From Cyanobacteriota bacterium erpe_2018_sw_21hr_WHONDRS-SW48-000092_B_bin.40 (lineage in GTDB: Bacteria; Cyanobacteriota; Vampirovibrionia; Obscuribacterales; Obscuribacteraceae): DNA of 64,000 bases. Shown piece by piece: positions 40,595 to 52,518 of this stretch; within the stretch, counting starts at the first letter, position 1; each line of letters begins with the position of its first letter. The stretch is taken from the NCBI GenBank assembly GCA_030917395.1, contig JAUPUU010000106.1, positions 2,806-66,805 of the forward strand. The letters are read 5' to 3'. Below the pieces are notes generated by a model. That model did not search any database. It was not told the DNA's origin and saw only the letters and a program-made list of their open reading frames with translations. The translations under genes and the position numbers were made by a program.

Positions 40595-41956
40595 ATGCGC
40601 CGCAAGAACATTCCTTCACTACCGCTGCTCTTATCGCTTCTTTCATCGCTTTCAGTAGCGACCGAAATTACCTTTGCTGGCGCCAGCTATGCTAACAACG
40701 GCGTCACAGACTACTTCCCGCCCCCTGTACCAGTCGTACCAAATCAACGACCGCTAACTTCAGGTGTTAGCAGCACTGGCCCCTTGCAAGGCGGCATCAA
40801 AAGCGAAACACAACTAAATCCATCACTGCGGCTCTTTCCTCAATTTCAAGGTCAAGTCAACGGCAATGGCGCCTACGGTCGCCCGTTGTCACCCCTTAGA
40901 GATTCATACACCCCGGAACAAATTCGCGGCAATGTACACACAGGCGGCACCAATGGTGGCATAAACGGCGGGCCAGTGGAGCTGCTCGGCGACACCGCCA
41001 GAGGTGGCAACGGCAGAATGTACGGCTTGATTGCGCCCATATCTTCCTATACCAGGACCCCGGCTCACGGCGTGGTCAACTATGTTCCAGGCTCAAATGT
41101 CACATCAATATTTAGTGGCAGTAGCAGGTCGGTTGACACCACCCCCAATCACTACCAGACAGTTGGTAAAGGCGTAACAGTTCTATCACCGGAGCTAGCA
41201 GTTTCGTCCGTGCCAGTTCCTGTTACTGCGCAACCGACCACATTTTTCGGCGGACGCATGGTAGGCTCTGCCTTAGGTACGCTAACAAGTGCTATTCAGC
41301 CTGCACTGCAAATGATTGCGCCGGGAATATACACAGTTAGTAATTTACGAACCAGTCTTCCTCAAGTTGAAGAGACTCATTACATCACCAAACACGGTAT
41401 CACTACAGCACCGGGTTATGAAGTAACTATTACGCCACCAGGCCAAAGTAAAGAGACCTTGGGCGGCCGCTGGTCAGCCAATCAGCCGACACCAGTTAGC
41501 TTGAGCGCTGTGCCAGGCACCCTGCAATCGCAGAGAATTTTCACCCGGATAGAACCAGTTAGTGAGATGGCGAGAACCCGTGTACTCACCCAATTCCAAG
41601 CACCACCTTGCGACACTTGGCCGCAATGGTATCGCGTCGTAGCTAAAGCAATCTACACTCGCTGGCAGACAGCCGATGTCTGCCCGGGAACAGCAAAACT
41701 TGAAGTGACAATCAAACCAGACCACGACATTTCCGGCCGAGTGGTCGAATTCATTCCTGCCACTGACGTTGAACGCAATATACCAAGAGAAACAGAATTC
41801 AGAGAGACAGCTGTGCAGATTGTTGATCAAGTGGGCTTCTTTGAAATTCCTGATTTCCCCAAGCCACCAGCCAATCAAGTTACCTTTGATATTGACCTCA
41901 AACGCACTGTTGATGGTCCAACTGGTGTTTCAATTGTAGGCGTGCCAGCGAAATAA
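40595..41956 (+). CDS. Secreted hypothetical protein
   Basis: A signal peptide and G/P/T-rich middle region are present. The C-terminal ~100 aa vaguely resembles a TonB-C-like fold, but this is unsupported by motifs. Confidence 0.5.
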   Translation: MRRKNIPSLPLLLSLLSSLSVATEITFAGASYANNGVTDYFPPPVPVVPNQRPLTSGVSSTGPLQGGIKSETQLNPSLRLFPQFQGQVNGNGAYGRPLSPLRDSYTPEQIRGNVHTGGTNGGINGGPVELLGDTARGGNGRMYGLIAPISSYTRTPAHGVVNYVPGSNVTSIFSGSSRSVDTTPNHYQTVGKGVTVLSPELAVSSVPVPVTAQPTTFFGGRMVGSALGTLTSAIQPALQMIAPGIYTVSNLRTSLPQVEETHYITKHGITTAPGYEVTITPPGQSKETLGGRWSANQPTPVSLSAVPGTLQSQRIFTRIEPVSEMARTRVLTQFQAPPCDTWPQWYRVVAKAIYTRWQTADVCPGTAKLEVTIKPDHDISGRVVEFIPATDVERNIPRETEFRETAVQIVDQVGFFEIPDFPKPPANQVTFDIDLKRTVDGPTGVSIVGVPAK

Positions 41957-42151
41957 GCGAGATATGCACTGCCTGCAATATCTGTCAGCACATTAATGTC
42001 GCTAACACTATTTAACAGCGGACCAGCGACTGCAGAACAATCTACACCACGCGGTTTTAGTTAAGGTGAATCCAACTAAGCTCTTTAGAACCTAGCACAA
42101 GGCGATAAAGTCTAAATTGACAAACTGGCTTACCAATGCCTTAATTCACAA

Positions 42152-43516
42152 ATGGCTGACACCTATTTAGAGCACACATATCATTATTTAACCCCTAGCG
42201 TTCTAAAAACTAGCTCGGGGTCGGCGAAGCTTCTGCTTGCAACATCTAAGCAGGCAGAAATTTACCCCTATTTTTTTGAGGGCAACCTGCTTCAACCACA
42301 CGCCACTGCCAAGCTCTTACTGGTTTTATCGAAGCTGGTAAGCACTCGATTCTATACACCTACGAATATGTTAGAAAAAGCGATTGCCGAAGCAGACCCT
42401 GTTGTCACCAGTGGCGGTGGCTTACTAAGATTCGAAGGATTCAGCGCCTGTTGTAGCACTTATGCGCGCATAGATATAACGCCAGAAGGATACAAAGGGG
42501 AGATTGTCGAAAACGGCACAACCAATGTTGACTTTAATGCTCCAATGCGAGCCACACTAGCTATGATACGAGATCAAGATCTCCTTGCTCTTTCAGTCGG
42601 GGAAGCAGAAGTAGTACTCAAGCATGGACCTGAGCAAGTGGTCGAAAAGAAAGTGAAGCTTCCTTATCGCTGGCTCAAGGGGTTCGTAGAGGTTCAAGCC
42701 TATCAGGCAAAGATGGAACACTGTCTAACTCTAGGACGCGCCGAAACAATTAAATTCCTGCGTTCGATTCCCAGTCAGACATCTAGTCACTCTGACTTCT
42801 GGGCAATACCGGCCGGAAAAGGCTTGAGGCTCACACAGATGGCAAATTCTTCAGGTGTGAAGGTGGGTGGGCTAGAACGACTACGCCTATTGCGAGACTT
42901 AGCACCTCTAGCGGATCAGCTGCGGATATTCGCACCATCCAACGGCGAATCATCCGAATGGCAATTGAAGTGTGGCGGTCTCAACTTTACTTTGACATTG
43001 ACGGCTGAGTCTTCACGCGGTTTCTCCGGCGAAGGACAGGTATTAGATAGCCTCGCATTTGCTCAGTCAAACAACGTATCTAAAGTATTGGCAGCCCTAA
43101 AATGGCAATCTAAACTAGAGCCTGAAAGGCTAGCAGCCATCTGCGAAATTGAGAACGACAAAGTAAAACAAGCTCTGAGCATTCTCGGTTCGAGAGGTTT
43201 GGTCGGCTTTGATGTCGATCGTGGATACTTTCACAGAGAGCTGCCGTTTGATATAGAAAAAGTTGAGACAGTTCATCCCAGACTGATAGCTGCGCGAAAA
43301 CTTTTGGCAACCGATCGCGTCACTATCAACAAAAGCCATGAAGATTCAATCGAAGCTTACGTCAGTGGAACAGATACCAGACATTTTGTGCGACTGGCAT
43401 CTGCCGAAGAAAAGTGCACCTGCCCCTGGCAGGTGAAATACGAAGGCGCACGCGGATCGTGCAAGCACATTCTTGCTGTCAAACTAATGGTAAATCAACT
43501 AAACAGTAACATTTAA
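42152..43516 (+). CDS. SWIM zinc-finger family protein
   Basis: The C-terminal SWIM signature is EKCTCPWQVKYEGARGSCKHILAVKLM (CxC...CxH). N-terminal conserved-looking blocks are DPVVTSGGGLLRFEGFSACCSTYARIDI, GTTNVDFNAPMR and KVKLPYRWLKGFVEVQ. Confidence 0.8.
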   Translation: MADTYLEHTYHYLTPSVLKTSSGSAKLLLATSKQAEIYPYFFEGNLLQPHATAKLLLVLSKLVSTRFYTPTNMLEKAIAEADPVVTSGGGLLRFEGFSACCSTYARIDITPEGYKGEIVENGTTNVDFNAPMRATLAMIRDQDLLALSVGEAEVVLKHGPEQVVEKKVKLPYRWLKGFVEVQAYQAKMEHCLTLGRAETIKFLRSIPSQTSSHSDFWAIPAGKGLRLTQMANSSGVKVGGLERLRLLRDLAPLADQLRIFAPSNGESSEWQLKCGGLNFTLTLTAESSRGFSGEGQVLDSLAFAQSNNVSKVLAALKWQSKLEPERLAAICEIENDKVKQALSILGSRGLVGFDVDRGYFHRELPFDIEKVETVHPRLIAARKLLATDRVTINKSHEDSIEAYVSGTDTRHFVRLASAEEKCTCPWQVKYEGARGSCKHILAVKLMVNQLNSNI

Positions 43517-43545
43517 AATAAAAAGGTACCTCGAGTCGATTAGTA

Positions 43546-46152
43546 ATGGAAAAGTCAGACGAAAAACTGCAAACTTTCGATGCCATCTTGTCGGCGCGAA
43601 GCCCATCTGAGCTTCAAGCATTCTTGCATGGATCGACTGACACCGAGCGCTCAAAATTTGCAACCAGAGCGATAGCCAACTATAAGGCGGCCTGCAAGCC
43701 AAGCGAGGAGACGACTGAAGTTGGCGGATTTGTCTTCCATACAGGTCGGAGTCATGTAGATACTTTCGACGCTCTAGCTGTTCTAGTTACGGCAAGCGAA
43801 AAGCAGCTAAAGAGCCTCACCTGGGGAATATTACTGTCGAAGCCTTTTGATTTCAGTATTCTAAAAGAACTAAAACCCAAAGCATTGCGATCTTTCGGTG
43901 ACGTACTACTAGAACAGAGCGACAGTTACTTTAATCTGGTGCTAGAGCTGTGCAAAATAGACGTATGTCAAACCCCAACAAGTGATGCGGCCGTATTTGC
44001 CTGGCAAAACACAGGCAGCAGACATTTAATACACGATGCCAAAGCAGAAGACATTAGTCCACTATTGCTAGAGCCAAACTTTCTCAACGACACTATCTGG
44101 CGCTTCTTTGAAGCAAACAGCAATCAGGGGCGCAGCCTAGCCTCCCTCGACCGATATAGAGCAGACGGAGGATGGGCCCATGTTATCAAATCCCTTGCCG
44201 AACAAGGTCATATTTCAAGGGACAGGCTCCTTCGCGAAAGTCTAAGAGCACTGAGCAGAGACTTCCCTCAAAATAGCTCTAGTTGGTTCTCTAATTTTCA
44301 TGAGTTGTTGCGGCCATCCATCGAAGAAAGAATGGCGCTGACAGAACAATACGCCAACTTACTCGGCAGTACGATACCACCAACAGTATCATTTGCAGTC
44401 AAAGCGCTGACAACCATAAACAAATCACGGCCACTGCCACAAGACTTACTTGTAAAATACATTCCACTGACATTTAGACTCAGACAGAAGGGTCCGATCG
44501 TTGCAGCATTGGCTCTGCTAGAAGATGGAGCGACGCTCGATCCAGTCTTTGCGCAGCAATGCACCCATATAGCAGTTGATGCGCTGCAGCATGATGCCTT
44601 AGACGTGCAGGCGAAAGTCTGCGACATACTTGAGCGCTTTGCTAATACTAACGACGGAGAATTGAGCAAGCAACTAAAAACCTATGCAGACACAATTTCC
44701 TCCAGTGCTCGGCGACGATTAAGACCTCTGCTCGGGACACTAGAAGATACAGAGTTTCAGCCGGTTAAATCAGCTGCATCAACCTACGTCAGTGCAGATG
44801 AACAGACAACTGGCTGGCCTTTGAGCTATTGTGAACGAGTGGTGCCAATCCAGAACGCTATTGAACTTTTATCAAAGTCCGCCTACTGCCTGGAGCATCC
44901 GCATCTAGTAAATGAAATGGAGCAGGTGACTGACGCCATTGCGCGAATTCCAATTGTATACAATGAACCAACTAACAACCTAATCGCGCCGCTAAGAGCA
45001 AGAGCCTTAAAGCTACTCACAGGAAACCGGTCGAACAAGCAACAGCTACAAATTGCCTATGCCGATTTCATTCAATGTGCCTTAGAGCCCACGGCAGATC
45101 TGCGCTTGCACGAAACAGATAAGTTATATCCTCTCGTTGATTTTGTGCAGCTGCAATTTAAAGCCATTCTTCTTCGCATAAAAAAAGGTATTTACCTGCC
45201 GCTACTAAGCACACCGACTCACATTGGTGGTTGGATAGAGGCAACACAATTGATCGAGCGTCACAAGGAGTGGAACGCGGCAGGCCTGAATCCGACGGAC
45301 ATCGACTTGACATTAACTCTTTTGCGAACACCAGAGGGAGAAAGAGCAAAGCTTACTAGCCATAAGGATATTTGCATCGATTTGAGAACCGCATTTGAGA
45401 CCGTAAGTTCGACGGCACCGGCTGAATCGATCAAAACAGCCCACCAGTCAAAGGATACTAGCTCAGCACTTTGCCTAGCGGCCACATACATGCGTGGTCC
45501 AATCGATACAGCTTACTTGCCAGATTTTGGCACAGGGGCACTGCTAAGATATGCTCAAGAACCATCGACAATCAACTTGCAAGCAATTTGCCTTCCGGGC
45601 TTAAGGGAATGTGTGCTAGCCGCTGGTGTGCGCCAAGCAGCAGTCACTCTTGATGGATTCTCAGCATATGAACATGGCATATCCAGCTATTTTTCATTGT
45701 TGAGTCAATCGGGTGCTCCACTAGAAACAAAAGCTTACGAACTCATGGCCATTGGACTAATTCATAGCGACATTGCATGTTTAGTATTAACTCGAGATGC
45801 CTGCATCTGCGCAATTGATGAAAGAAGACTCTCAGTGTCCAAACTCGGAAGGAGACTTTCTGCTTACATTCACTCAGGGAAGAACCGACCAAAACGCCTT
45901 GTAGCATCGCTTTCTGAAATCGCTCGCTTGAGCGAAACTCATGCTAGTGCCGTAATTCAGATTCTCGAAAGCACTCTGCAAGGCGAAATGCGAATGGTAC
46001 CGGTTGGCCTTGCTAGCTTGCTTGAGTTTTACCAAGAACTGCTAGTCGAACAAAATGGTTCGATCAAGAACATCGACACGCGCAAATATCTAGAAACATT
46101 GCCAACTGGAGGCAAGACATCAAAACTTGCTAAGGCTTTGCTTTCGATGTAG
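43546..46152 (+). CDS. Large (868 aa) predicted all-helical protein of unknown function, partner of the SWIM protein
   Basis: It starts 29 nt downstream of the SWIM gene. No catalytic or nucleotide-binding motif was seen. Composition is HEAT/ARM-like. Similarity to DUF4132/DUF6493-type partners is from memory only. Confidence 0.6.
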   Translation: MEKSDEKLQTFDAILSARSPSELQAFLHGSTDTERSKFATRAIANYKAACKPSEETTEVGGFVFHTGRSHVDTFDALAVLVTASEKQLKSLTWGILLSKPFDFSILKELKPKALRSFGDVLLEQSDSYFNLVLELCKIDVCQTPTSDAAVFAWQNTGSRHLIHDAKAEDISPLLLEPNFLNDTIWRFFEANSNQGRSLASLDRYRADGGWAHVIKSLAEQGHISRDRLLRESLRALSRDFPQNSSSWFSNFHELLRPSIEERMALTEQYANLLGSTIPPTVSFAVKALTTINKSRPLPQDLLVKYIPLTFRLRQKGPIVAALALLEDGATLDPVFAQQCTHIAVDALQHDALDVQAKVCDILERFANTNDGELSKQLKTYADTISSSARRRLRPLLGTLEDTEFQPVKSAASTYVSADEQTTGWPLSYCERVVPIQNAIELLSKSAYCLEHPHLVNEMEQVTDAIARIPIVYNEPTNNLIAPLRARALKLLTGNRSNKQQLQIAYADFIQCALEPTADLRLHETDKLYPLVDFVQLQFKAILLRIKKGIYLPLLSTPTHIGGWIEATQLIERHKEWNAAGLNPTDIDLTLTLLRTPEGERAKLTSHKDICIDLRTAFETVSSTAPAESIKTAHQSKDTSSALCLAATYMRGPIDTAYLPDFGTGALLRYAQEPSTINLQAICLPGLRECVLAAGVRQAAVTLDGFSAYEHGISSYFSLLSQSGAPLETKAYELMAIGLIHSDIACLVLTRDACICAIDERRLSVSKLGRRLSAYIHSGKNRPKRLVASLSEIARLSETHASAVIQILESTLQGEMRMVPVGLASLLEFYQELLVEQNGSIKNIDTRKYLETLPTGGKTSKLAKALLSM

Positions 46153-47683
46153 CCGCTGCGCCAAGATCGGTATCCCACGGTATCTTCATCCACGGGCTAT
46201 TTTTCTCGGTCAGCAGCATCTTGTAAATGCGACTGTATTCCTTCTCATCTTTTTTCCAATGTTCTTCACTCCAGAACCTTCGACCAACCAAGTATTCTTC
46301 GCCCATCTGCTGCCAACTGCTGTAATTGCTCCGCAATCTTTTTGCCACAGGCAGAAGCAACTCATTTGCCTCTTGCTCGCTGACAAAACCAAGCCTGAAG
46401 CCCCAACGCACAAGACAAACATAACGACAAAGATCCCAAGCAAGAATGCCCCTGGCTCCAAACTCTTGACCGTACTTTTCGACAACAGACATGCGATTAC
46501 TAAAGTCACCACTAGCAATATCACTAGTAACATCCAAAAGTTGATCTAGTTGCATACCATTGGTTTGATATTTCACATACTCTTTCCAAGTGTGATTAAA
46601 ACCGCCATCACCCTGCAAAGCTTTTAGTTGGTCGAGTAATTCTTCACGAGACTCAATCCCCCACCATTCCGCAAGAGCCTCGCGTTCAGTGTCGTTGTTC
46701 TCCTCGGTCGCGGCATCGCCTCGCAATGAATTGCAACCCTCATCATGCTTGGTAAACATCAATGCTGAGCAGGCAAGAGCCCAACGCATGGGCAAAGATA
46801 CACCATGGGCAGCATCATAATCGAGGTCATCGAGAGTGAGAAATGACACTTTATACCAATCAGGCTCGGGGGCATACCGAGCGGCTAAATTCAAATCAGC
46901 CCGAGCTTTAGCTAAGTTACCCATAGCGGCATAGCAGTCAGAGCGCGCACTGTAGGCCCCGTGATCTTTAGGGTCTAACGCAATCACTTTATCGTATTGC
47001 TTGACGGCTAAACTTGGATTGCCAACATCCCACAAATAACCGGCAATAGTATTGAACTCATAAACTGAAGAAGCCGGCAAACTCAAGGCTATGCCGACAT
47101 CAGCTTGGGCTTCGTTGGGTAGATTCAGACTTTGCTCTGCTCTTGCTCGACATAAATACAAAGGAGCATATCTAGGTGCGCGACTAATTCCCTCAGTGGC
47201 GTCCATTCTAGCTTTGGCAAACTCGCCCTTCTTACGATAGGCGCATGAACGACCATACCAATGCACATAATGCTGAGGGCCCAAACTTATTGCTTTGGTG
47301 TAGTCTGCAATTGCCTGATCATATAAGTCTTTTGCTAAATACTCATTGCCGCGATCATTGTATGCCTCTTCCAAACCCGGATTCAATTCAATCGCTCGAT
47401 CGTACTCGGCAATGGCCTTATCTTCTTCAAATTTAGCCGAATAGACAGTCGCGAGACCACAGTGAGCATCAGCAGACTTATCGTCGACTGCCAGCTTATT
47501 GTTGAACAAGGCGGCGGCTTCTTTTAATTTGCCAGCGCGACAAAGGGCTAAACCTTGCTCGCGCAAAGCATGATTTTCTTCAACCACAGGCTGCGTACAG
47601 GCACACAGAGAAGAGAAAGCAATCCAGGTAGCCAAAAGAGATAAGGTCTCAGTCGCGAAATTCTTAGACACCGATACCCCCAC
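46130..47683 (-). CDS. Lipoprotein-like TPR protein with a C-terminal DUF1266 domain
   Basis: An N-terminal signal with Cys is followed by about 7 TPRs (AIAEYDRAIELNPGLEEAYNDRGNEY and others). The C-terminus has AEWWGIESREELLDQL...GILAWDLCRYVCLVRWGFRLGFVSEQEA, the DUF1266 pattern. Confidence 0.7.
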   Translation of the reverse strand: MGVSVSKNFATETLSLLATWIAFSSLCACTQPVVEENHALREQGLALCRAGKLKEAAALFNNKLAVDDKSADAHCGLATVYSAKFEEDKAIAEYDRAIELNPGLEEAYNDRGNEYLAKDLYDQAIADYTKAISLGPQHYVHWYGRSCAYRKKGEFAKARMDATEGISRAPRYAPLYLCRARAEQSLNLPNEAQADVGIALSLPASSVYEFNTIAGYLWDVGNPSLAVKQYDKVIALDPKDHGAYSARSDCYAAMGNLAKARADLNLAARYAPEPDWYKVSFLTLDDLDYDAAHGVSLPMRWALACSALMFTKHDEGCNSLRGDAATEENNDTEREALAEWWGIESREELLDQLKALQGDGGFNHTWKEYVKYQTNGMQLDQLLDVTSDIASGDFSNRMSVVEKYGQEFGARGILAWDLCRYVCLVRWGFRLGFVSEQEANELLLPVAKRLRSNYSSWQQMGEEYLVGRRFWSEEHWKKDEKEYSRIYKMLLTEKNSPWMKIPWDTDLGAAATSKAKP

Positions 47684-47688
47684 CTCTT

Positions 47689-48897
47689 CTATTTAACCTT
47701 GCTAGCCCGCAGCCGCCTTAGCTCTTCCCGCACCCGAGCGAGCTCTTCACTCGGTGTGGCCGCTTTCTTAGTATGCCTGGTCTCAGGCGCCTTAGTCATG
47801 GCGGCGATCATGCCGCGACGCAGACCAAAAGAAACGAGAGGGTCGGAAGTGATACTGCTGACGATATCATATTGAGCACCAAGAGTAGTAAGCTCGTCGT
47901 CCAAAATCTGGGCAAGCTCCTGCCCGGCGGCATCATCACCTAATTGCAAGAAGAGAAACTGGGCCTCTTGGGGCGAGCGAACACGCTTAGAGGCCGCAAT
48001 CAAAATGTTTTCGATCTCGTCATTAGAAACCAGGGCATCGGTAATCACAACCACTAAGAGCGGCTTGCGATTGACATTCTTGAAGTGTCTGTCAATCACT
48101 TCATTGAGAGGAGTAGCTAAATTAGTACCACCACCCGGATGTCGATTATGCAAAAATTGGCGGACATTGGCTGCGGTGCAATTGGTAAAAATCTCATGGT
48201 TACTCTCAAAAGTGCAGAGAGTAAATCCGCCGCTACCAAGGCGCTCTGCCTCTTTGGCCAAACTGACAATTTCTTTGCTACACCACTCCCACTTTGTCAT
48301 TGGTGGAGAATTCAGCCTGTCGTCCATCGAGCCTGATGAGTCGACCATAACGACGATTTCATAATTTTTCAAAGTACGCCAATCAACCGACTCAGTGGCA
48401 GCGGCAGCTAGAACCCGCGCGGCTTCTAACTTTCGCTCTTGCTCAGGAGAAGTGACAGCAGCGGAAAGCTTCAAATTCGGATTCTTTTTTGCCGCTTCGC
48501 GAGCAGCATCAGCTGCCAGATTATCGGGAGTGTACTGCAAAGCCACAGTGTATTTCTTACCAGCACGCTCGATAGCAAGAAACATTTTGTTCTGACCAAT
48601 CTGGCCGTTGAGGACGCGATCTCCTTGCGCTAAACCAGCATAAGCAGCAGCAGAGCCCATTCGCACCTTCTCAATTACAGTAGGCAATTTATTGTCTTTG
48701 ATGGTGATTCCAGAAGCGGCGCAAGCACCAGCCAAAACATTGACCTCGCCTGATAGCGTTATTGAACTGCTAGACGGCGACTTTGCCTGGGCAGCAGTTT
48801 TTGACTGCGGAGCTGAATCTGTTGGGAGCGCAACAACAAACGAGCCGACAATGCAGAATAAGCCGCCCCCAAGGCCAAGCACAAGCCCTAACTTCAT
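47689..48897 (-). CDS. PDZ plus von Willebrand factor A (VWA) domain protein
   Basis: The PDZ-like segment is VRMGSAAAYAGLAQGDRVLNG. The VWA MIDAS motif is VVMVDSSGSMDD, with a later GGGTNL. Confidence 0.75.
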   Translation of the reverse strand: MKLGLVLGLGGGLFCIVGSFVVALPTDSAPQSKTAAQAKSPSSSSITLSGEVNVLAGACAASGITIKDNKLPTVIEKVRMGSAAAYAGLAQGDRVLNGQIGQNKMFLAIERAGKKYTVALQYTPDNLAADAAREAAKKNPNLKLSAAVTSPEQERKLEAARVLAAAATESVDWRTLKNYEIVVMVDSSGSMDDRLNSPPMTKWEWCSKEIVSLAKEAERLGSGGFTLCTFESNHEIFTNCTAANVRQFLHNRHPGGGTNLATPLNEVIDRHFKNVNRKPLLVVVITDALVSNDEIENILIAASKRVRSPQEAQFLFLQLGDDAAGQELAQILDDELTTLGAQYDIVSSITSDPLVSFGLRRGMIAAMTKAPETRHTKKAATPSEELARVREELRRLRASKVK

Positions 48898-49805
48898 TTA
48901 GACTTACCCGATGCAACAGCGCGCTTTTTCGGCTTCGTACTGCTACCAAGCGACAAGGCCGTAGCGCTCATTGACTCAGGCAGCGGCTTAACTGGTGCTT
49001 CAACCTCATCAGAGTAGTTTATATAGTTCTTCACTTTGCTAGAGCTCAACGATGGCATCACCCGAATTGTACTCTTGCCACAGTTAGTCTGACTCAAAGC
49101 GTTAGCGGCATGATTGCGCAGGTCGGCAACCTTGCGAAAATACTCTTCGTCGAGGGCTCGCAACTCTCGCTGGTAAAAGTTAGCATCACTGGCGCTCTGC
49201 TGATAAGACGTCGGTGAATAGTCTCTTGGGCTATGACGCATGCGGGAAGAATAGCGTTCACTCGCCAACCTTTTCGCCTGGGTCAACTCATCTCTGAGCC
49301 TATTTTCAGCCTGAATCTGCTCGTCGGTTAGTCGCTTCTGAAAGGCGTTCAACTCAGTTTCTTTTTGGTGCGCTGGCGATTTCAAGGCAGCAGCCAAAGC
49401 AGCTTCTTTTTGCTGCAGAAGCTTCTCAAGACCCTGCTTCGAAAATTCCTTTAGCTGCGCCGAAGCATTACTATTCAAACACTGCCGGTACTCAAAAATT
49501 GCTTCGTCGGCTTTGCCCAACTTAGACAAAGTGTTGGCCAAATAATATCGAATTTCCATGTCGGTTGGCTGCTGCGTCAACGCCAACCGGCCACTGGCCT
49601 CGGCCAGCTTAAAATCGCCATGATTATACTCAGCAATGAGCTTCTTCTTAGCACTACCAGCTTGATCAGCACGACCGGCTTGATCAGCACTGTCGAAGCC
49701 GCCAGCCGCTGAAGACTGAGCAGTTGCAGCGGTGATTGTTATCACCACCGCCAAGCAGCACAGCCTAAATTGTCGAGCGAAGCCTTGAATCATCAATTTA
49801 TCCAA
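48894..49805 (-). CDS. Secreted TPR plus coiled-coil protein
   Basis: A signal peptide precedes a TPR pair (LAEASGRLALTQQPTDMEIRYYLANTLSKLGKADEAIFEYRQCL) and then a long charged helix. The stop overlaps the VWA gene start. Confidence 0.6.
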   Translation of the reverse strand: MDKLMIQGFARQFRLCCLAVVITITAATAQSSAAGGFDSADQAGRADQAGSAKKKLIAEYNHGDFKLAEASGRLALTQQPTDMEIRYYLANTLSKLGKADEAIFEYRQCLNSNASAQLKEFSKQGLEKLLQQKEAALAAALKSPAHQKETELNAFQKRLTDEQIQAENRLRDELTQAKRLASERYSSRMRHSPRDYSPTSYQQSASDANFYQRELRALDEEYFRKVADLRNHAANALSQTNCGKSTIRVMPSLSSSKVKNYINYSDEVEAPVKPLPESMSATALSLGSSTKPKKRAVASGKSK

Positions 49806-50348: not shown

Positions 50349-50903
50349 TTAGCTCTCAGTTAACGTTTTCAGCTTTGCAAGGCCCTTTGCAAAGTCTTTT
50401 CCGCACATCTCATCCATGTTGCAGAAAATCTGCATTACTTTGCATATAAAGGGAGCATCGCCACTCATAGCCCAAGTAACCTTGGTCATATCGCCTTCAG
50501 GCGCAAAGGAAAAATTGACCTTATTGTCACCCTTGAATGGCTTGAGAAAGTGCAAATCTATTTTTACATTGGAAGGCTCTGCCACCTCAGTAATTTCCAT
50601 ACTGCCTGAACCAACTTCATCATTGCCGTCCCAAGAATAGACAGCGCCTTTACCCTTCTCAGCGCCACTAAAGGTGCTCTTCATCTTGGGATCTTTTTCT
50701 TCGTAGGGAGACCACTGCTTCCAGTTATGCAGATCATTTACCATACTAAACAGCTTTTCAGGAGAAGCCTTAATCACAGCCGAACGTTCAACGGTGAACG
50801 TATCTGGCTTGCTTGCGGCCATGCCTAAAATTACCACCAGTGCCAACCCGACAAGGGCAACAACACCTATTGCTATTTTCTTGATCATCAGTTTCTTCCT
50901 CAA
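50349..50903 (-). CDS. SRPBCC-family protein with an N-terminal membrane anchor
   Basis: FTVERSAVIKASPEKLFSMVNDLHNWKQWSPY is typical of the polyketide-cyclase/SRPBCC fold. Confidence 0.75.
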   Translation of the reverse strand: MRKKLMIKKIAIGVVALVGLALVVILGMAASKPDTFTVERSAVIKASPEKLFSMVNDLHNWKQWSPYEEKDPKMKSTFSGAEKGKGAVYSWDGNDEVGSGSMEITEVAEPSNVKIDLHFLKPFKGDNKVNFSFAPEGDMTKVTWAMSGDAPFICKVMQIFCNMDEMCGKDFAKGLAKLKTLTES

Positions 50904-50913
50904 ATAACTTCAA

Positions 50914-51375
50914 TTAATTCAGTGGCCGATTGAGCTGAGTACGCCATTGACTTGGATCGGGGCCAGACTCGGGACCAACCATATAGACCTCCCAGAGGTC
51001 TTCAGCAGATTCATGACCCTGGGCTTCAATCCATTGCAAAAACTCGCCCCAGGCCTCACCAAGGCCTTCATATCCGCCCTGATAAACAGTGCGAGCGACA
51101 GTATGCGCAGGCATCTGACCAGCCTTAACTCGCCCAACTGGTGTCACCGGTGATGCCACAGGAACGCAAATTTCAAAATCAAAAGTATCATCTGGTCTTT
51201 TTAGGTGGTGCGTAAACCAGGGGCCAGTAGGCTTCATCCCCTGGGCGGCAAGAGCCTCAAAAATCTCCATTATGCCTGGTCCCATAACAGTTTGAATCTC
51301 TGCTCTGGGAACAACAATATGAATGGAGGCAGTTTCTTGCGCAGGAGCATCTACCACTATTGGTGCTTCAATCAT
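50914..51375 (-). CDS. GyrI-like small-molecule-binding domain protein
   Basis: GPWFTHHL, FDFEICVPV, GGYEGLGEAWGEFLQWIEAQGH and WEVY are present. Confidence 0.75.
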   Translation of the reverse strand: MIEAPIVVDAPAQETASIHIVVPRAEIQTVMGPGIMEIFEALAAQGMKPTGPWFTHHLKRPDDTFDFEICVPVASPVTPVGRVKAGQMPAHTVARTVYQGGYEGLGEAWGEFLQWIEAQGHESAEDLWEVYMVGPESGPDPSQWRTQLNRPLN

Positions 51376-51393
51376 TTAAAAACTTTCCTCTCT

Positions 51394-51906
51394 TTATTTG
51401 AGCTTTGCCACTAGTGCCGCAAGCTGATCTGTAGCAATGCCCCAACCTTCATAGAAGCCCATTTTCTCGTGAGCTTCGCGGTCGGCCACTGTCCAATGCA
51501 ACACGCGAGCAGTATATTTAGTTTTGCCTTCATGCTCTTCAAAGGTAAGAATGCCAGTCATGAACGGCTTTTCGGATGGTACCCAAGCGCTGGTATAAGC
51601 ATCAGTAAAAACTAAACGCTCATTCTTCACGACTTCTAAATAGATTCCCTCATTAGGAATCTGGGTGCCATCAGGAGCCTGCATCACAATCACATTTGAG
51701 CCACCAGCGCGCAAATCTACTTCTGCAGATATGGTCTTGTATGGTGGTGGCGTAAACCATTGAACGATCAAATCTGGCTCAGTCCAAGCTCTAAATACCT
51801 TTGATGGAGGGGCATCAATGATGCGGGTCAAAGTTAACTCGCGCTCCATATTGTTGGCGGTCTCTTTATGTTCAGGTACCGTCGATGTAGTTTCTGGCAT
51901 GGTCAC
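51394..51906 (-). CDS. SRPBCC/AHSA1 (Aha1-like) domain protein
   Basis: ELTLTRIIDAPPSKVFRAWTEPDLIVQWF and GIYLEVVKNERLVFT are present. Confidence 0.8.
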   Translation of the reverse strand: MTMPETTSTVPEHKETANNMERELTLTRIIDAPPSKVFRAWTEPDLIVQWFTPPPYKTISAEVDLRAGGSNVIVMQAPDGTQIPNEGIYLEVVKNERLVFTDAYTSAWVPSEKPFMTGILTFEEHEGKTKYTARVLHWTVADREAHEKMGFYEGWGIATDQLAALVAKLK

Positions 51907-51912
51907 TCCTTA

Positions 51913-52518
51913 TTAGTGTTCAAACAAAGACTCTAAATAGCGACGCAAATGCATCATGCTTTGCACCGCAACCTCTGGGCTTTGCTTGGCTTTGGCAAAA
52001 ATAAATGCCCCTTGTATAACTGATTGAATGAAATAGCCGACGCTTTCAGACGTCCAGCTAGCCTTTGGTGCGTAGAGTAATTTAGCGTCCTCAATATCGT
52101 GCGCCAATTCTCTTACATGGGCTGTCATCCCGGCATCACAGGCCTCACGCACGCTCGGATGGGTTGCATAAGCTTCTTGCACCATGGTGCCGAGCAAGCA
52201 CGTGTATTGAGAGATTTCAGCGCCCAACATAGCGATGCGAAAATCGATGTAGCCGAAAAGGCGGTCACGCGGATCTTCAAGAGCTTGATACGGCGCGGCT
52301 GCAAAAATCTGCTCCGCCATATTGCTAAATTGCTCAGCAGCAGCAACGCCAAGCTGATCTTTGCTTTCAAAATGATGGAAGAAGCCGCCCTTGGTTACAC
52401 CCGCAGCCTGGCAAATGTCATCGACGGTTGTGGCGCTGTAGCCCTTGGCGCGAATCAGGTCGCGAGCGGCGTCAAGCAGCTTGGTGCGGGTTTCAAGACT
52501 ATTGCGGGTGCGGGCCAT
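51913..52518 (-). CDS. TetR-family transcriptional regulator
   Basis: KLLDAARDLIRAKGYSATTVDDICQAAGVTKGGFFHHF. It is the first gene of a four-gene same-strand cluster. Confidence 0.85.
   Translation of the reverse strand: MARTRNSLETRTKLLDAARDLIRAKGYSATTVDDICQAAGVTKGGFFHHFESKDQLGVAAAEQFSNMAEQIFAAAPYQALEDPRDRLFGYIDFRIAMLGAEISQYTCLLGTMVQEAYATHPSVREACDAGMTAHVRELAHDIEDAKLLYAPKASWTSESVGYFIQSVIQGAFIFAKAKQSPEVAVQSMMHLRRYLESLFEH

Follow-up and report, generated by a model that had tools for sequence, protein, structure and literature searches.

What do two adjacent genes do that encode a SWIM zinc-finger protein and a very large helical partner? The question is raised by a locus in Cyanobacteriota bacterium erpe_2018_sw_21hr_WHONDRS-SW48-000092_B_bin.40, a member of the Obscuribacteraceae, for which we analysed the 64,000-nucleotide (nt) stretch from positions 2,806 to 66,805 of the forward strand of contig JAUPUU010000106.1 (assembly GCA_030917395.1), here called the window. 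A preliminary description of this DNA had noted two co-directional open reading frames (ORFs) 29 nt apart, on the same strand, together with three distinctive sequence blocks in the first of them, and all of these were found exactly as described. The two genes, whose products we refer to as P0001 and P0002 (Table 1), make up a self-contained operon. Two points go beyond that description and carry the argument below: P0001 is homologous to an accessory protein of type XIII retrons, and a large part of it is predicted to have a sliding-clamp fold.

A two-gene module shared by many phyla

The synteny set comprised 80 loci obtained from a scan of species-representative genomes, with all ORFs clustered. 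These loci span at least 8 phyla, with Obscuribacterales/Melainabacteria, Planctomycetota, Pseudomonadota (Burkholderiales, Gammaproteobacteria), Myxococcota, Lentisphaerota, Verrucomicrobiota, Acidobacteriota and Armatimonadota. The SWIM gene is present in every locus, and a DUF6493-type partner lies directly downstream of it on the same strand in 75 of the 80, a pairing far beyond chance that bears out the earlier suggestion of a conserved two-gene module. Every other recurrent family was either an antisense shadow ORF or occurred in no more than about 5 of the 80 loci. The gap between the SWIM gene and its partner typically ranges from -4 (an ATGA overlap) to +30 nt, and the two genes are often translationally coupled. 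RefSeq labels such pairs as "SWIM zinc finger family protein" and "DUF6493 family protein". Apparent SWIM-partner fusions of 1079-1410 amino acids (aa) in high-GC loci were rejected as artefacts of a longest-ORF caller, the genes concerned lying in different frames.

Relationship to type XIII retrons

P0001 matches the PADLOC model SWIM_XIII (PDLC02972) with an E-value of 3.6e-59 and a score of 198.7 bits. Type XIII belongs to the most widespread classes of retrons (PMC13712802), and the proteins of cluster 114_1 in these retrons carry a "DEDE" motif, a winged helix predicted by Mestre et al. (2020) for the retron XIII homologs, and a C-terminal SWIM finger of the form CxCx12CxH; a HEAT/ARM or WGR-HEAT protein usually goes with them (PMC7736814). 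The motif of Mestre et al., Dx7[D]x4Ex30-32Dx37E, maps to the invariant residues D82, E95, D127 and E165 of P0001. A BLASTP comparison of P0001 with a retron-linked Myxococcus SWIM protein gave 25% identity over residues 12-393 (E 3e-16), and the two proteins share the elements DPxxT..FExFS, GTTNVDF and ExKVxxPxxWxxGF. Set beside the type XIII retrons as a group (Mx162/Mx65/Ne144/Sa163; PADLOC models SWIM_XIII, HEAT-ARM_XIII and WGR_XIII), the SWIM protein is homologous over almost its full length, with the same acidic motif, winged helix and CxCx12CxH finger, and it is likewise encoded next to a large partner of predicted alpha-solenoid fold.

The same comparison also separates the two systems. 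Type XIII retrons encode a reverse transcriptase (RT) and the msr/msd non-coding RNA (ncRNA), whereas no RT or ncRNA was found here: the window contains no RT, no RVT_1 gene was present among the neighbours of the pair that were examined, and no RT family recurs in the 80 related loci. No Rfam family scored above threshold in the window, where Rfam coverage of type XIII msr/msd is unconfirmed, and no tRNA feature was detected there. The gene order is SWIM then solenoid in the present pair, in contrast to solenoid, SWIM and RT in the two Myxococcus retron loci examined. The type XIII partners have no detectable sequence similarity to the DUF6493/7824/7825 partner; P0002 has no PADLOC match, only one of 49 partners touches WGR_XIII (at 0.005), and hhalign between the partner and the retron WGR/HEAT proteins returned a probability of 0.3%.

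One Myxococcus genome carries both kinds of SWIM gene. On SWIM_XIII, its two RT-linked copies reach 526 and 464 bits, and each lies between a gene for a helical protein and an RVT_1 gene, one of the helical proteins being a 2214-aa WD40+HEAT protein that scores 1678 bits on HEAT-ARM_XIII. The RT-less copy of the same genome scores 186 bits on SWIM_XIII and is followed by a DUF6493 partner. Because RT-less copies, P0001 included, score 186-199 bits against 464-526 bits for the RT-linked ones, we place the pair in a sister subfamily and not among true type XIII retrons. The retron copies form a long-branched outgroup in the SWIM tree, and a conserved loop, RGFSGEGQ, is specific to the RT-less subfamily and missing from the retron-linked copy. 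On sequence grounds, then, the module of the window is an RT-less sister subfamily of the type XIII retron accessory pair.

The source genome does have a single RT, a retron-type enzyme on the 2.5-kb contig C93 (L009:350-1513). Its best PADLOC match is RT_III-A, at 269 bits, versus 233 bits for RT_XIII.

Predicted structures of the two proteins

An alignment of 24 P0001 homologs contains about 75 invariant residues, and the blocks singled out in the preliminary description, DPVVTSGGGLLRFEGFSACCSTYARIDI, GTTNVDFNAPMR and KVKLPYRWLKGFVEVQ, belong to the best-conserved regions of the family. The CxC...CxH finger named there also holds up, all four ligands (C422, C424, C437 and H439) being invariant in the 24 homologs, though the Pfam SWIM score of P0001 (PF04434; Table 1) is slightly under the 19.6-bit cut-off. 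Neither P0001 nor P0002 has a match in NCBIfam, and searches by sequence yielded no solved relatives for either protein, the only matches being weak ones to winged helix-turn-helix (wHTH) domains.

The AlphaFold2 (AF2) model of P0001, built from the 24-sequence alignment, has a mean predicted local distance difference test (pLDDT) value of 82 and a predicted template modelling score (pTM) of 0.80. When this model was searched against the Protein Data Bank (PDB) with Foldseek, the best 50 matches were all PCNA (E to 4.7e-10, prob 1.0), with a template modelling (TM) score on the target of 0.60-0.65 over about 280 columns, which amounts to the entire PCNA monomer. Against the viral library BFVD, the model retrieved giant-virus PCNAs, phage beta clamps and poxvirus VLTF-1 (E to 4.6e-9). 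The strand-helix order of residues 40-167 and 189-284 in the model is consistent with two clamp domains, and residues ~38-290 of P0001 are thus predicted to adopt a PCNA/beta-clamp fold. The likeness to PCNA, DnaN and clamp-fold proteins such as VLTF-1 is one of predicted two-domain fold; P0001 differs from PCNA and DnaN in its appended wHTH and SWIM finger and in showing no similarity of sequence, since a profile search against PDB sequences retrieved no clamps. No internal sequence repeat emerged when hhalign was used to compare the two clamp domains with each other, or the half-domains. Between the two domains, at the site of the PCNA connector loop, P0001 appears to have a conserved helix (residues 172-186), a placement inferred from predicted secondary structure.

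Beyond the clamp-like region, the predicted wHTH gave weak profile matches to GntR/FadR regulators and to the wHTH of TFE (E 0.05-0.5), and the C-terminus that bears the SWIM finger is beta-rich in the AF2 model. P0001 as a whole is mildly basic, with an isoelectric point (pI) of 8.3; clamp domain 2 has a pI of 9.75 and clamp domain 1 is acidic (pI 5.6).

The clamp-like region is also the part of P0001 that carries the four invariant acidic residues, and it is here that a different reading has to be weighed. From the "DEDE" motif, and by analogy with IS256/MULE transposases, Mestre et al. proposed a nuclease (PMC7736814). The SWIM protein would accordingly be a metal-dependent nuclease and toxic effector and the solenoid its sensor or inhibitor, a reading that we regard as unlikely. 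The invariance across phyla of D82, E95, D127, E165, other polar residues and the RGFSGEGQ loop is more enzyme-like than one would look for in a passive clamp, and MULE transposases likewise end in a SWIM finger (Mestre et al., PMC7736814). However, the motif region is predicted to be a DNA clamp and not an RNase-H-like domain, the top matches in both Foldseek libraries being PCNA/beta clamps, and this predicted fold argues against a DDE-transposase fold for P0001. Furthermore, no nuclease or transposase match was found in Pfam or among PDB sequences, there is no sign of terminal inverted repeats or of mobility like that of a transposon, and within genera the flanks of the pair are stable. MULE/IS256-type DDE transposases resemble P0001 in their C-terminal SWIM finger and conserved acidic residues, but have an RNase-H-like fold where P0001 has a predicted clamp and lacks transposon features.

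For P0002, the DUF6493-type assignment suggested earlier is confirmed and extended: DUF6493, DUF7824 and DUF7825 all score above their gathering thresholds, in this order from the N- to the C-terminus, in P0002 and in the two paralogs of the same genome (Table 1). The AF2 model (49-sequence alignment; pLDDT 86, pTM 0.76) is an all-helical solenoid, in agreement with the all-alpha protein of the preliminary description. Foldseek retrieved for it only generic HEAT/ARM solenoids (FANCD2/I, exportins, importins, CAND1 and condensin HEAT subunits) at E >= 1.7e-3 and a TM score of about 0.15, with no confident match to a characterised family. P0002 is accordingly modelled as a generic HEAT/ARM-like solenoid. 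The partner is best recognised by a non-helical loop, L554-S-x-P-T-H-x-G-G562-W-I, and by R594; of these residues, G562 and R594 are conserved in 100% of 66 partners.

Distribution and evolution

The family is sizeable, with 1827 of 1.84 billion 50%-identity cluster representatives matching at E <= 1e-3 and 616 at E <= 1e-30. Cultured carriers include Variovorax, Massilia, Undibacterium and Streptomyces, and Bacteroides thetaiotaomicron, used as a control, matched both SWIM_XIII and DUF6493 and probably carries the SWIM/solenoid module as well. In Bacteroidota the pair occurs on a 74-kb plasmid of Chondrinema litorale (L099:4522-14610), where it sits between two replication-initiator genes and parA, in the plasmid maintenance region; it is also found on Streptomyces linear plasmids. 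No homologs were found among 50,697 phage records.

Within the order, 38 of 81 genomes carry the pair (16 of 39 when counting high-quality genomes), as do 5 of 12 in the genus and 13 of 151 in the phylum, with 0-3 copies per genome. The source genome has three paralogous pairs, of which the one on contig C348 adjoins genes for an M16 peptidase, dUTPase, DapB, DapA and RNase J. Across the loci, the flanking genes are unrelated, serving such functions as valine catabolism, cytochrome c peroxidase, histidine kinases, ATP-binding cassette (ABC) and resistance-nodulation-division (RND) transporters, Ser/Thr kinases and NAD salvage. The pair is an accessory module with long vertical retention, frequent loss and occasional transfer.

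The SWIM tree shows Burkholderiales as a single clade of 21 and Obscuribacterales as two well-separated clades, with the window copy in one and the two other copies of its genome in the other. The window copy and the other two are therefore either paralogs of ancient origin or genes acquired separately. A few rows break phylum boundaries: Myxococcota lie within Planctomycetota groups, and the copy of a Bryobacterales (Acidobacteriota) metagenome-assembled genome nests with full support inside an Obscuribacterales clade (L088 versus L079), which is explained either by a recent horizontal transfer or by a binning error.

Both genes are passed on as a unit and co-diverge, the pairwise identities of SWIM protein and partner being correlated with a Spearman coefficient of 0.72, a value inflated by shared phylogeny. 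Median pairwise identity across phyla is 45% for the SWIM protein and 25% for the partner, and the partner evolves about twice as fast. Three loci have two or three tandem partner genes, with 29-48% mutual identity: in L074 (2148-12978) three DUF6493-type partners of 41-48% identity stand in tandem behind a single SWIM gene, and L023 and L050 have two partner genes each.

Possible functions of the pair

We propose, with somewhat less than even confidence, that the pair consists of a DNA-binding, clamp-like core and a variable solenoid subunit, and that it is a retron-less counterpart of the type XIII retron effectors, a function that we infer from the comparisons above. P0001 and P0002 would bind each other in a stoichiometric complex, with nucleic acid as its target. 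In such a complex, DNA binding and possibly catalysis would fall to a core formed by the constrained clamp/wHTH/SWIM subunit, and the fast-evolving, sometimes tandemly duplicated solenoid would serve as a variable subunit for recognition or regulation. On this view, the pair would represent, in free-standing form, an effector that type XIII retrons put under the control of RT and msDNA (multicopy single-stranded DNA), and its relation to these retrons may be likened to that of Septu to the type I-A retron. Given its accessory distribution, its fast-evolving and duplicated partner, its kinship with retrons and its occurrence on plasmids, its role is most likely an accessory function in genome conflict or DNA surveillance rather than that of a MoxR/VWA chaperone system.

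Several observations weigh against this proposal. The pair has no defence-island context, its flanking genes being mostly housekeeping genes, and the largely order-coherent SWIM tree fits long vertical retention better than a fast-moving defence cassette; the correlation of identities between the two proteins is inflated by shared phylogeny. The argument that pair and retron accessory genes form the same module draws on the SWIM protein and on the partner's fold class, since the partner has no sequence similarity to the retron partners. No enzymatic Pfam domain was found in P0001 or in P0002, as the preliminary description had held for the latter. Finally, literature searches, including those on SWIM proteins with sliding clamps and retrons and on SWIM proteins with anti-phage functions and HEAT repeats, returned no functional study of any member, which agrees with the earlier statement that no function has been assigned: no paper mentioning DUF6493 was found, and nothing useful on YehQ or DUF4132. 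The lone mention of YehQ, in a crosslinking study, proved to be an entrapment-database decoy.

A more specific form of the proposed mechanism, which we consider improbable as it stands, is that the SWIM protein forms a PCNA-like ring or open clamp on DNA without an AAA+ loader, and that the variable HEAT solenoid reads or gates that state. No AAA+ clamp-loader gene is linked to the pair. If true, this would be a clamp-based mechanism of DNA surveillance or immunity of a kind not yet described in bacteria, and it would account for the sensing of msDNA by type XIII retron effectors, in which the clamp-like protein would hold the retron DNA.

The predicted clamp fold, the mostly order-coherent phylogeny and the housekeeping flanks also agree with another reading, that the pair is a cellular accessory factor of DNA replication or repair, providing an alternative clamp-like platform after DNA damage, and not a conflict system. 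The position of the pair between rep and parA on one plasmid points the same way, as does the damage regulation of related helical-partner families: in Deinococcus radiodurans, DNA damage induces, through DdrO/IrrE, both DRA0166, a DUF4132 protein, and DR2173, which has a WGR domain, and Escherichia coli MolR, which shares that WGR domain, is cited as a member of the LexA regulon (10.1101/2021.07.07.451423). Nevertheless, those regulon data concern DUF4132/WGR proteins and not DUF6493 pairs, and a search of the 300 nt upstream in 28 proteobacterial loci found no SOS box (CTGT-N8-ACAG). The absence of the pair from more than half of the genomes of its order and genus, and the fast evolution and duplication of the partner, are also poorly suited to such a role, and we give this reading only a small chance.

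Contacts between proteins are often made through SWIM domains and HEAT solenoids, and the pair might instead have nothing to do with nucleic acids and act as a protein-protein scaffold or a regulator, such as a substrate adaptor, whose clamp fold serves only as a platform for interaction and whose SWIM finger binds protein. Besides these general habits of the two domain types, the presence of ZSWIM8-CUL3 among the weak Foldseek matches of the solenoid and the acidity of clamp domain 1 would fit a scaffold. The winged helix, the basic clamp domain 2 and the homology to an accessory protein of retrons, which are producers of DNA, indicate nucleic acid, and we rate the scaffold as slightly less probable still than the replication/repair factor.

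Neighbouring genes and expression signals

Table 1. Features of the gene pair and of the convergent operon, in positions of the window unless residues are given
Feature	Position	Strand	Basis or remark
Gene 1, clamp-like / winged-helix / SWIM protein P0001 (454 aa)	42152..43516	+	ORF and translation
Gene 2, alpha-solenoid partner P0002 (868 aa)	43546..46152	+	ORF, Pfam, AF2
Promoter-like element TTGACA, 18-nt spacer, TTAATT; ends 4 nt 5' of ATG	42118..42147	+	Sequence reading
Two predicted DNA-clamp-fold domains (equivalent to one PCNA monomer), P0001 residues ~38-290	42263..43021	+	AF2, Foldseek
Predicted winged helix-turn-helix, P0001 residues ~296-365, then invariant HRELP motif	43037..43246	+	AF2 secondary structure
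SWIM zinc finger CxCx12CxH, P0001 residues 419-448	43406..43495	+	Pfam PF04434, 17.1 bits
DUF6493	P0002 residues 8-298		76.9 bits vs cut-off 25
DUF7824	P0002 residues 457-600		58.6 bits vs cut-off 27.5
DUF7825	P0002 residues 686-866		50.9 bits vs cut-off 27.4
TPR + DUF1266 protein, 517 aa	46130-47683	-	Overlaps 3' end of the pair by 23 nt
Protein with signal-like N-terminus, weak PDZ and VWA, 402 aa	47689-48897	-	Pfam
TPR protein, 303 aa	Within operon 46130-49805, beyond the VWA gene	-	

The promoter-like element upstream of gene 1 lies in a stretch of about 40 nt that is near-identical in the closest relative, a pair of 80% identity (locus L036), where the remaining intergenic spacer has diverged. 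This conservation suggests that the pair has its own promoter and that the mRNA is leaderless or has a very short leader. A generic scan for promoters and terminators gave matches no better than those in shuffled sequence. The preliminary description had the module slightly AT-richer than the housekeeping parts of the window, but its GC content (47.0%) is within the noise of 4-kb windows (48.0 +/- 1.1%) and compares with 47.8% for the genome; no compositional signal of foreign DNA was found in the module.

An operon containing a VWA gene converges on the pair and overlaps its 3' end, as had been stated (Table 1). Its VWA, tetratricopeptide repeat (TPR) and TPR-DUF1266 proteins have hydrophobic, signal-like N-termini and look exported. 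In L036, only the TPR-DUF1266 gene of this operon is kept beside the pair, and the convergence of the operon on the pair is a local accident.

The preliminary description had stated that such SWIM proteins are often found near MoxR-type AAA+ and VWA genes, a context with a possible model in the E. coli yeh cluster, which we take to comprise the SWIM protein YehQ, the DUF4132 proteins YehI/MolR, the MoxR protein YehL and the VWA protein YehP. The yeh cluster resembles the present locus in combining a SWIM protein with large helical proteins; MoxR and VWA genes are part of it, but not of the conserved neighbourhood of the DUF6493 pairs. The E. coli control genome had no match to SWIM_XIII or DUF6493. 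One locus, the sole one seen to link the pair to a yeh-like MoxR cluster, combines both: in L098 (1-9677), two DUF4132 genes, a gene for a 743-aa HEAT protein and a bpMoxR AAA_5 gene lie divergently adjacent to the pair. The HEAT protein has weak matches to WGR_XIII and HEAT-ARM_XIII, and the cluster is split by an rve/AAA_22 transposon.

That the pair belongs to a MoxR-AAA+/VWA system like yeh, with the converging VWA operon as its functional partner, could draw on L098 and on the VWA gene 1.5 kb away on the opposite strand, but it is very improbable and largely refuted by synteny, as no MoxR or other AAA+ gene lies near the pair in the window, neither MoxR nor VWA recurs in the 80 loci or stands beside the C348 paralog, the VWA gene is missing beside the L036 pair, and the signal-like N-termini of the operon's proteins are at odds with a pair that looks cytoplasmic.

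Just upstream of the pair, positions 40595-41956 of the plus strand encode a protein of 453 aa that lacks Pfam matches and whose N-terminus is signal-like; it has a counterpart of 89% identity in L036 and is missing from the other 79 loci. Further downstream, on the minus strand (50349-52518), a TetR regulator gene is followed by genes for AHSA1/SRPBCC, GyrI-like and polyketide-cyclase-like small-molecule-binding proteins, a cluster that looks like one for ligand sensing or detoxification.

Significance

Both protein families are already labelled in databases, and retron-linked homologs of the SWIM protein have been described. We found no paper that ties these SWIM proteins to a clamp fold, and no account of how type XIII retron effectors work. 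Should the pair be only a scaffold without a phenotype, it would be an ordinary conserved hypothetical. The value of the present analysis lies in a concrete structural hypothesis for an unstudied and widespread system. In many phyla, a SWIM protein of the retron kind lives with its solenoid partner but without a retron, and the predicted clamp fold replaces the guess of a transposase-like DEDE enzyme by a testable idea, that of a DNA-binding core in the shape of a clamp, joined to a partner that varies. If true, this idea would open up how an entire retron class works, and likewise a family of about 1800 protein clusters now carrying DUF labels only.

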